From Escherichia coli (GTDB lineage Bacteria > Pseudomonadota > Gammaproteobacteria > Enterobacterales > Enterobacteriaceae), in NCBI RefSeq assembly GCF_044324875.1, contig NZ_CP172185.1: a DNA stretch of 64,000 nt; one strand, 5' to 3'. Position 1 is the first letter of the stretch; every line of letters begins with the position of its first letter. The position numbers were made by a program, and so were the translations under genes. The notes under the pieces are model-generated. The model was given only the letters and a program-made list of their open reading frames with translations. It had not been told where the DNA came from and made no database searches. Below are positions 8,979 to 12,188 of this stretch, in pieces.

Positions 8979-9841
<863 letters not shown>

Positions 9842-9873
9842 TTAGCGGGGGAAGCAAAATGCCTCCCCCGGTT

Positions 9874-9891
9874 GTACTCGCTAAAGAGTAC
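9874..9891 (-). promoter_or_regulatory. TrpR operator (autoregulatory) in trpR promoter
   Basis: 18-bp palindrome gtactcgctaaagagtac; minus strand reads ATCGTACTCTTTAGCGAGTACAAC, matching the Trp operator half-site GTACT...AGTAC, about 50 bp upstream of the trpR start. Confidence 0.75.
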
Positions 9892-9915
9892 GATAGCATA
9901 TCATAAACGTGCGGA

Positions 9916-11853
9916 TCAGTAACGACGTCCCCATTCCGTGGCGCTCATCAATGTCGGTTTATCCCCCATGAAATAGCGGTAGTAAGCGTCATAAGCCAGC
10001 ACGTTCTTCACATAACCGCGCGTCTCGGAGAACGGAATACTCTCGACAAATGCCACTGCGTCGATACGCCCGGCGCTGTTGCCAAGCCAGGTTCGCACCC
10101 GCCCTGGTCCGGCGTTATAAGCTGCTGAGGAGAAAATACGGTTATTACCAAACTGCTGATAAACATATTGCAGGTAACTGGTGCCAATGTTGATGTTCGT
10201 TTCCGGATCCAGCAATTGCCCAGGGCTGCTATAACCAGGAATAGAGAACATCTTCACCGTATGGGTCGCCGTGCCCGGCATAATCTGCATCAGGCCGCTG
10301 GCCCCTACCGGTGATTTCACTTTCGGATTCCAGGCGCTCTCCTGACGGGCAATCGCCATCGCATAGCTTTGCGGGATCTCCTTCCCACTGGTGTAACGTT
10401 TGAAAAGATCGTTGTAAGCCAGCGGGAATCGCTCTTCCAGATGATCCCATAGCTTCCCGGCGATCGTTGCCTGAACGCTAAGATCCCACCATTGGTTATT
10501 GAAAGCATACCGAGCCAGTTGCGCCTGCTCTGTTTTTGACTTGCTCTTCACCAGATTGGCCCACTCGCTACGCGCGGTATTATCGAGATTCCAGTACATC
10601 AACTCGCGCACGCGCGCCATCTCCGGCCCCTGAGTCAAGGTGCTGTCAACATTCTGCGGCGCTTTATCAATCTTCAGCTCATACTCTTCACCGATGCGTT
10701 GTGCTGCAACCATCGGGTAGAAACCACGCTGTTGCATGAGTTGATGCAAAATCTCTTTTGCTTCAGCTTCACGTCCGCGTTCCAGCAGTAAATCCGCCTG
10801 CCAGTAACGCCATTCATCTTTCTCTTTCGCCTCCATCGGCAGACGCGCCAGCCAGGTATTCAGGCCGCGACGATCGCCGGTGCCAAGCGCCATTCGCACA
10901 CGGCGTTCAATAAGCGAAGTAGATTGCGAACGCATAATGGCGTCATCACGCCATTTCGCCTGTTCGTCGGTGACATCGTTGCCCATCAAACGCCAGGCGA
11001 CGATATCGCGCAGCTCCTGAATCTGATCTTCATTAAGCTGCTGCGCCTGGGCAAGCGACGGGATCATCAGCCGTGCATTTTCAGCATCCTGCCGCGCTAC
11101 ACTGGCAAACGCCACCGCCGCCATTTGACGGGTAAAATCGGTCGCTCCGGTTGTACGCGCGAAGGTCAGTACCGTATTAGGATTGTTCGCTAGTGAAATG
11201 ATTGCCGAAGCGATAGTCTGGTAATCGGCAGGCATCTGCCCTGCCAGCACTGTTACCAGGCCAGTGTTACCCGCTTTCATCGCCAGACGGATACGCTCTA
11301 AATACGCCAGCGGATCTTGTTTACCTGACGCACGCCAGACGCTGAATAACTTGTCACAGGCGTTAGGCTGGCTCTTGCCGGTTAGCCACAGCTCTTTCGC
11401 CCCTTGCCAGGCTTCTTCACTCTGCCCGGTGTTCCATTTCGCATAGTAGTAATTACATTGCGCTTCGGTAGTTCCGGGCTTTTCTGGGCTAAAGGCTAAC
11501 AAGCCACGCCAGTCTTCACGCCGCGCCAGTTCATTGACGAAACGAGATTGCAGCGTGCGAGCGGGAGGAAGCGTGGGGTTAGCGCGAACAAAGTTAGTGA
11601 CCGTCACCGCCGGTTGATTCATCAGGTCATCGGTGATCTGACGGTATTCCAGGTAGGGATAAAGCGGATAATCCTTCAGTCCAGGCATCATTTGTTCGAC
11701 CACATCCATTTGTCGATTATCCCAGGCCTGCTTGATTTGGGCGTAGCGGCTACGCTGCTCATCCAGTGAGTCGGCTCGCGCCACGCTGCTGACCGTCAGC
11801 AGACAGACACCGGCAGCCAACAGCCGCCAGGTAACGTGTTTGGCTTTTTCCAC
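9916..11853 (-). CDS. slt: Soluble lytic murein transglycosylase Slt70
   Basis: ORF 9916..11883; probable GTG start at 11853 (agagga about 8 nt upstream) gives 645 aa beginning (V/M)EKAKHVTWRLLAAGVCLLTVSSVARA; C-terminal lysozyme-like domain. Confidence 0.92.
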   Translation of the reverse strand: MEKAKHVTWRLLAAGVCLLTVSSVARADSLDEQRSRYAQIKQAWDNRQMDVVEQMMPGLKDYPLYPYLEYRQITDDLMNQPAVTVTNFVRANPTLPPARTLQSRFVNELARREDWRGLLAFSPEKPGTTEAQCNYYYAKWNTGQSEEAWQGAKELWLTGKSQPNACDKLFSVWRASGKQDPLAYLERIRLAMKAGNTGLVTVLAGQMPADYQTIASAIISLANNPNTVLTFARTTGATDFTRQMAAVAFASVARQDAENARLMIPSLAQAQQLNEDQIQELRDIVAWRLMGNDVTDEQAKWRDDAIMRSQSTSLIERRVRMALGTGDRRGLNTWLARLPMEAKEKDEWRYWQADLLLERGREAEAKEILHQLMQQRGFYPMVAAQRIGEEYELKIDKAPQNVDSTLTQGPEMARVRELMYWNLDNTARSEWANLVKSKSKTEQAQLARYAFNNQWWDLSVQATIAGKLWDHLEERFPLAYNDLFKRYTSGKEIPQSYAMAIARQESAWNPKVKSPVGASGLMQIMPGTATHTVKMFSIPGYSSPGQLLDPETNINIGTSYLQYVYQQFGNNRIFSSAAYNAGPGRVRTWLGNSAGRIDAVAFVESIPFSETRGYVKNVLAYDAYYRYFMGDKPTLMSATEWGRRY

Positions 11854-12188
11854 AAGCGCATCCTCTAAGTGTAAATACATCAATGCAGCGTCATGCCGCG
11901 TAATAGATTTATGCTAACCAGTCATTGCCGTTTACGCCACGTTACGGACACTTTTTTACTTTTATACTCTAAATAATTCGAGTTGCAGGAAGGCGATAAG
12001 TGAGTGAGTCCCCAGGAGCTTACAGAAGTAAGTGACTGGGGTGAGCGAGCGTAAGCGCAGCACATGCAACTTGAAGTATGACGAGTATACTGCGAGGGTG
12101 ATCGACCGGCTGGGATTAGATAAGGAAACAGGCTACACTTCGCCTTTGAAAACTCATCATCACGATAAACATAGAGGCGAAGTCCAAC

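Follow-up and report, generated by a model that had tools for sequence, protein, structure and literature searches.

The window, meaning the whole 64-kb stretch of Escherichia coli DNA analyzed here, carries slt and trpR on its minus strand, separated by an 89-bp spacer. The genes and the features between them are as follows, in the order in which they are transcribed.

9916 to 11883, minus strand: slt (soluble lytic murein transglycosylase) open reading frame; Pfam SLT (E = 4e-36) and SLT_L (E = 2e-23).
9895 to 9903, minus strand: extended -10 element TGaTATGCT of the trpR promoter (TG at 9902-9903, hexamer at 9895-9900), as read from the sequence.
9890 to 9898, minus strand: second, overlapping extended -10-like element TGcTATCGT (hexamer at 9890-9895), likewise a sequence reading.
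9874 to 9891, no strand assigned: TrpR operator of trpR (trpO-trpR), sense GTACTCTTTAGCGAGTAC, equivalent to NC_000913.3 4632695-4632712.
9887, minus strand: transcription start mapped by dRNA-seq (U00096.2 position 4630722, forward, class II; NC_000913.3 position 4632699; PMC4681348, Table S2).
9846 to 9870, minus strand: leader RNA stem-loop CGGGGGAGGCA-UUU-UGCUUCCCCCG, 11 bp including one G.U pair.
9833 to 9837, minus strand: putative weak Shine-Dalgarno-like GGCGA, read from the sequence, 6 nt ahead of the start codon.
9500 to 9826, minus strand: trpR coding sequence, 108 aa, start ATG at 9824-9826; Pfam Trp_repressor (E = 6e-29).

The slt stop codon (TGA, 9916-9918) lies close to the trpR promoter, the -10 region of which is found 13 to 15 nt downstream. 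As called, the slt open reading frame begins at the first TTG, and the K-12 annotation is shorter (645 aa). Window positions were converted to the K-12 reference as NC_000913.3 position = 4632760 + (9826 - window position). The spacer is 100% identical to that of E. coli K-12 MG1655, so that the K-12 literature is directly applicable to it, and a 181-nt stretch across the spacer holds a single difference from MG1655, located in slt. Of 5426 complete E. coli genomes, 5421 gave a match to the region at their sltY-trpR-yjjX locus; the spacer is present as one copy per genome in the same number (5421/5426), and the RefSeq annotation of these genomes places no feature beneath the spacer. When window positions 9400-10100 were compared with the 5,426 complete genomes, the top match was 99.3% over 701 nt, and most matches were at 95 to 99%; the window thus comes from an Escherichia lineage without an exact counterpart in this collection, even though its spacer equals that of K-12. 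Moreover, slt and trpR are entered in one operon table as a single unit, which implies read-through from one gene into the other.

The 18-bp palindrome that an earlier note had placed at 9874-9891 is present there exactly as described. On the plus strand it reads gtactcgctaaagagtac, of the form GTACTC-N6-GAGTAC, and its outer 6-bp arms (GTACTC at 9874-9879 and GAGTAC at 9886-9891) are perfect according to the repeat finder, while inspection of the full dyad by eye gave 7 matching pairs of 9 symmetric ones, the central TA pair included. The claim that this palindrome matches the Trp operator held for the identity of the site, given its conservation, the published footprint, and its 100% identity with K-12, and has to be qualified for the match itself, which is imperfect. 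Compared with GTACTAGTTAACTAGTAC, the idealized symmetric TrpR operator of the crystallography literature, 14 of 18 positions agree, and the four mismatches fall in the inner CTAG positions. The pattern GTACT-N8-AGTAC occurs once in the 64-kb window when an exact match is required and twice when one mismatch is allowed, against 0.63 matches expected. In a comparison set of 80 trpR loci from other Enterobacteriaceae species, exactly one such pattern was found, always directly upstream of trpR, in 79 loci as well as in the K-12 locus; the exception (L074) carries a one-base operator variant, GAGTAT. A text search of the literature for the literal operator sequence gave no match.

The promoter could be read from the same comparison. 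Among the 80 related loci, nearly all have the extended -10 motif TGnTATGCT, or a one-base variant of it, ahead of the operator at a distance of 0 to 3 nt, and the distance in the window is 3 nt. The second element, TGcTATCGT, which overlaps TGaTATGCT by one T, is found only where a 3-nt ATC parts TATGCT from the operator, as in Escherichia and Citrobacter; in other genera the separation is 0 to 2 nt. A simple consensus promoter/terminator scan of 9400-10300 called nothing, and the missed call of the trpR promoter, which is too weak for the threshold of the scan, is consistent with a weak -35 element. The dRNA-seq start map, obtained with E. coli K-12 BW25113 (Romero 2014, PMC4681348), puts the trpR start at operator position 5, 8 nt past the last base of TATGCT, with a leader of 61 nt. 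The conversion from U00096.2 to U00096.3 used an offset of 1977 nt, which is our own arithmetic and was cross-checked with the neighboring starts of slt, yjjX, and ytjC listed alongside and with the K-12 gene coordinates. No trpR start was found among the entries listed in the supplementary tables from Cappable-seq, SMRT-Cappable-seq, Kim 2012, and ROSE. Gunsalus and Yanofsky reportedly described a 56-nt trpR leader in 1980, and such a leader would set the start at window position 9882 (NC_000913.3 4632704). Both candidate starts, the mapped 9887 and the 9882 of the 56-nt leader, are inside the operator. The element TGcTATCGT would fit a start near 9882, and the paired -10 motifs could explain why two starts have been reported.

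Published biochemistry agrees with this arrangement. Hydroxyl-radical footprinting placed TrpR on the 18-bp trpO of the trpR gene in a tryptophan-dependent manner, with a 1:1 TrpR-trpO(trpR) complex and 3.5- to 4.2-fold repression in vivo (PMC7518442, PMC7896080, both citing Gunsalus and Yanofsky 1980, Kumamoto 1987, Klig 1988, and Kelley and Yanofsky 1982). The mapped trpR start and the TrpR footprint thus both coincide with 9874-9891 and not with a site elsewhere. This stretch is the operator by which TrpR regulates the promoter of its own gene, long known together with its leader and promoter (since 1980). Tryptophan-bound TrpR represses that promoter through the 18-bp dyad. Because the operator contains the start and either follows the -10 element directly or overlaps it, one bound TrpR dimer blocks RNA polymerase, giving the known modest (∼4-fold) negative autoregulation. 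Promoter occlusion by operator-bound TrpR is demonstrated by the literature in conjunction with the promoter geometry and conservation described here. The operator is accordingly a case of classic negative autoregulation to which nothing new is added, and it serves as a positive control, in that a real operator was recognizable from sequence alone.

Beside the operator lies the GC-rich hairpin of which the earlier note had also spoken (gggggaagca-aaa-tgcctccccc on the plus strand, 9847-9869). It was found as located and extends by one C-G pair, giving 11-nt arms at 9846-9856 and 9860-9870 that are 91% complementary and enclose a 3-nt loop. The sole mismatch between the arms is A.C on the plus strand and G.U on the minus strand, which is the trpR sense strand. 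The stem begins 3 nt past the operator and stops 19 nt short of the AUG. The mapped start at 9887 is 17 nt upstream of the hairpin, so the hairpin belongs to the trpR 5' leader, as had been proposed; it occupies about +18 to +42 of the 61-nt leader (start at 9887) or +13 to +37 of the 56-nt leader (start at 9882), with about 11 to 17 unpaired nucleotides ahead of the stem depending on the start. For the 31-nt sense RNA the predicted folding energy is -21.0 kcal/mol (z = -4.8), and none of 200 shuffled sequences was equally stable; the plus strand of the same hairpin gave -17.8 kcal/mol (z = -3.3). The 23-nt hairpin sequence occurs once in the window even with up to 3 mismatches allowed. Downstream of the stem, the counterpart of the Shine-Dalgarno-like GGCGA in related species is GGCGG, GGTGG, or GAGG. 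In addition, a 6-nt inverted repeat, TTAGCG/CGCTAA (9842-9847 and 9879-9884), flanks the hairpin with a 2-nt overlap with the main stem; considered as a stem extension, it was rejected as probably due to chance, given this overlap and its lack of conservation in other genera.

The leaders of the 81 sequences compared form two classes: 40 have 46 to 55 nt between operator and ATG, and 41 have 11 to 34 nt and no hairpin. A stem-loop is present in all 39 distinct long leaders, with 8 to 12 bp in 38 of them and a degenerate form in the remaining one (L013), at fold energies from -12.7 to -23.5 kcal/mol. Long-leader stems start 3 to 5 nt after the operator and end 18 to 21 nt before the ATG. The sequences of the stems diverge by genus, reading GGGGGAGGC in Escherichia, GGGAGGGGC in Salmonella arizonae, GGCGGATGGC in Pluralibacter, GTGGGCAGC in Trabulsiella, and GGCAGGAGATAC in Superficieibacter. 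MAFFT alignments of whole leaders or whole hairpins put lineages out of register, and the RNAalifold stem was off by one position; covariation was therefore assessed on base-anchored 9-bp arms, comprising 20 distinct stems. In this set, standard pairs fill 96.7% of cells, a percentage inflated by taking the stem limits from each sequence's own fold, versus 74.7% after shuffling, and 0 of 500 shuffles reached the observed value. Compensatory changes on both sides were seen at 8 of the 9 stem pairs, and the covariation score was 0.728 versus 0.289 for shuffled stems (again reached by 0 of 500 shuffles). Slid-register controls were only 45 to 62% paired, and chimeric hairpins with arms from different lineages averaged -10.1 kcal/mol, versus -17.8 kcal/mol for cognate arms.

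The mismatches that are tolerated point to the strand on which the structure acts. G.U accounts for 18 cells, which would be A.C if read on the opposite strand, and A.C for 4 cells, all of these at terminal pairs; the G.U pairs are spread over seven different stem positions. The more stable strand is the sense strand in 26 of the 39 leaders and the antisense strand in 12 (Wilcoxon p = 8e-5), and within E. coli itself, strain 23CRST013 has a C-to-U change in the 3' arm that makes another G.U pair. The stem sequences are related by descent, and individual cells cannot be counted as independent events. Several such events are nevertheless needed to account for double changes at eight positions and for G.U pairs at seven. 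Since the wobble pairs suit the slt/trpR sense strand alone, it is as RNA that the structure acts, and the comparative sequence evidence indicates that the hairpin has been selected as a sense-strand RNA structure, with shape kept over sequence.

About half of the Enterobacteriaceae genera sampled have neither the hairpin nor a replacement. Its absence from 41 of the 81 sequences means that it is dispensable for trpR expression as such, and the hairpin is an optional module, which about half of the sampled genera have either lost or never acquired. Records of Citrobacter amalonaticus/C. sedlakii span both classes, with one long leader (L013) and three short, hairpin-less ones (L060, L075, and L077). 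The degenerate hairpin of L013 contains two C.U mismatches and folds at -12.7 kcal/mol, and the split within Citrobacter reflects either recent decay and loss or inconsistent taxonomy. One record, L039 (CACSKA010000010.1), is titled Chryseobacterium sp. 18061 and holds an Enterobacteriaceae slt-trpR locus near-identical to that of L040, Citrobacter sp. 18056, from the same project; the L039 assembly is probably mislabeled or contaminated.

The short-leader loci have pairings of their own. In these genera (L016-L024, L029, L031, L036, L060-L081, and others, at about 2440-2500), the -10 region GTTATGC(T) has its reverse complement, GCATAAC, immediately ahead of the trpR ATG. Kluyvera and Phytobacter instead carry GCATAAC right behind the operator, so that the palindrome arms grow to 12 to 14 bp. 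In L070, GGTAT is paired with ATACC, a possible compensatory change. Klebsiella indica and K. spallanzanii (L034 and L068, about 2395-2435) have a hairpin with a 15-bp stem, TTCAGGCAACATAGCA-TTTT-GCTATGTTGCCTGAA, located between the slt stop and the trpR promoter and without a U tract; both species are without the leader hairpin.

Taking these data together, we consider it likely, with a probability of roughly 85%, that the locus combines the TrpR autoregulatory operator with a leader RNA stem-loop that is under structural selection and would tune the fate of trpR mRNA. The GC inverted repeat at 9846-9870 is transcribed within the 5' untranslated leader of trpR and folds into a very stable stem-loop between the 5' end and the ribosome-binding region. 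Its role, we infer, is to adjust how stable trpR mRNA is or how well it is translated. The most likely route would be that the stem-loop acts as an obstacle, so that RNase E entering from the 5' end is kept away from the AU-rich region where ribosomes bind; steric effects on 30S loading, exerted where the 30S binding site begins upstream, may contribute on an mRNA whose translation is already reported to be inefficient. The hairpin is proposed as a fixed structure and not as a tryptophan-responsive switch, and its effect would add to a low, buffered TrpR level.

Several other roles for the hairpin were weighed. The main rival is that it belongs to slt, either terminating slt transcription or, after processing, capping the 3' end of slt mRNA against 3'-to-5' exonucleases. 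Because slt and trpR share a strand, such a role keeps its place among the candidates, and the hairpin, which lies 46 nt past the slt stop, shows a sense-strand G.U signal that suits slt equally well; no other terminator-like site is present between the two genes, and the operon table, by pairing slt with trpR, implies transcripts that run through. As a terminator, however, the hairpin lacks a U tract in all 39 lineages, where the 8 nt that follow the stem contain 1.2 T on average and never more than 3, and the terminator scan of 9400-10300 was empty. It is also located past the trpR start, so that a real terminator would abort trpR transcripts too. An intrinsic terminator was ruled out, the U tract being absent in every lineage. 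Against slt in general, where the leader hairpin is missing, as in Enterobacter, Lelliottia, Kluyvera, and others, most genera show no other hairpin behind slt in its stead and, as a weak point, a genome-wide 3'-end study has no trpR-leader 3' end among the entries listed. We regard an slt role as unlikely, though it deserves to be kept in mind. That the inverted repeat works as DNA, namely, as a protein-binding palindrome, a cruciform, or a REP/BIME-type repeat, might be thought of since its 11-bp arms adjoin a known protein-binding palindrome. It is largely refuted and very improbable: pairing is kept and stem sequence is not, the tolerated mismatches are G.U on the sense strand where a DNA palindrome predicts no strand asymmetry, and a REP/BIME element is contradicted by a single copy in the window (3 mismatches allowed) and one per genome in 5421 genomes.

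Within the trpR leader, the hairpin might instead repress translation by occluding the ribosome-binding site or by hiding the GGAGG of its 5' arm. The stem ends 18 to 21 nt before the AUG in every hairpin lineage, at the upstream edge of the 30S region; GGAGG is indeed contained in the E. coli 5' arm, and the 1982 paper of Kelley and Yanofsky is said, by its title, to deal with autogenous regulation and inefficient translation of trpR. Deletion of the hairpin in silico, however, leaves the unpaired probability of the -14 to +4 region the same (0.59 with the hairpin versus 0.58 without), so that simple sequestration of the ribosome-binding site is unsupported. In addition, GGAGG varies between genera, with GGCGGATGG, GTGGGCAGC, and others in its place outside E. 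coli, and lies at least 36 nt upstream of the AUG, and the weak Shine-Dalgarno GGCGA alone explains poor translation. Translational repression of this kind is therefore given a low probability, similar to that of an slt role. Far less probable still is a leader-peptide attenuator, in which the AUG at 9837-9839, out of frame and 13 nt ahead of the trpR AUG, would open a 30-codon frame (9747-9839, minus strand) that overlaps the trpR start and controls trpR. This AUG is AGG, ACG, or CGG in many genera; it is without a Shine-Dalgarno sequence, its frame is without Trp codons, there is no terminator, and no Rfam leader family matches, all of which disfavor attenuation.

RNA that reads through from slt was also folded. 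In the predicted fold of 9787-9931 (minus strand), the end of the slt coding sequence, CGUCGUUACUGA, forms a stem with codons 12 to 16 of trpR, UCAGCAGCGAUG; this pairing encloses the entire spacer, with a minimum free energy of -47 kcal/mol and z = -3.1. Predicted accessibility of the ribosome-binding site in this stretch is 0.42 for the read-through RNA versus 0.62 for the promoter-initiated one. Corresponding values are 0.42 versus 0.49 for long leaders and 0.32 versus 0.45 for short leaders, and read-through accessibility is also below that obtained with a shuffled upstream segment. The lower accessibility predicted by these folding models may insulate TrpR synthesis from slt read-through.

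A more specific proposal can be made for the stem-loop favored above, i.e., that Enterobacteriaceae have in it a cis-regulatory RNA module, uncatalogued and selected for its structure, with a specific, undescribed post-transcriptional role. We hold this only tentatively, as a possibility somewhat stronger than the rivals just discussed. Candidate roles for such a module are control of trpR mRNA lifetime through a block to RNase E scanning or insulation of TrpR synthesis from slt read-through. Searches with Rfam 15 covariance models returned three snoRNA matches at chance level (E = 0.29 to 3.4), none over 9846-9891. A literature search, whose reach did not extend to the original 1980/1982 mapping papers, returned no paper on the comparative behavior of the trpR leader hairpin. 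What appears modestly new, from the sequence comparisons, is the compensatory evolution and sense-strand wobble tolerance of this hairpin, yet it is absent from about half of the genera. If the module proposal is true, repeated loss of the hairpin would mark lineages that set TrpR levels differently. Considering that the TrpR copy number fixes the set-point of the entire Trp regulon, a leader hairpin that is selected as RNA yet dispensable in half of the family offers a cheap, well-defined test case for how 5'-untranslated-region stem-loops set the level of a low-abundance repressor.

The two elements can finally be compared with known systems. Among the operators of the E. coli Trp regulon (trpEDCBA, aroH, mtr, aroL, and trpR), the site in the window is the trpR member and does not differ from the K-12 trpR operator (100% identity). 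It shares with the regulon operators the 18-bp dyad, the GTACT...AGTAC outer arms, and the overlap with core promoter and start; unlike the others, the trpR operator takes a single TrpR dimer (PMC7518442). With intrinsic terminators, the hairpin has in common a GC-rich stem of 9 to 12 bp, a loop of 3 to 6 nt, and a position just downstream of a gene (slt), but it is followed by CUAACAAU and no U tract, and it sits inside the leader of the next gene. Closer to the reading preferred here are the ompA-type 5'-untranslated-region stabilizers and RNase E obstacles, which likewise have a stable GC-rich leader stem-loop upstream of an AU-rich ribosome-binding region. Classic 5'-terminal stabilizer hairpins typically tolerate only a few unpaired 5' nucleotides, fewer than the 12 to 17 ahead of the trpR stem, and the trpR hairpin, which half of the genera do without, differs from an ompA-type 5'-terminal stabilizer in lying away from the extreme 5' end.
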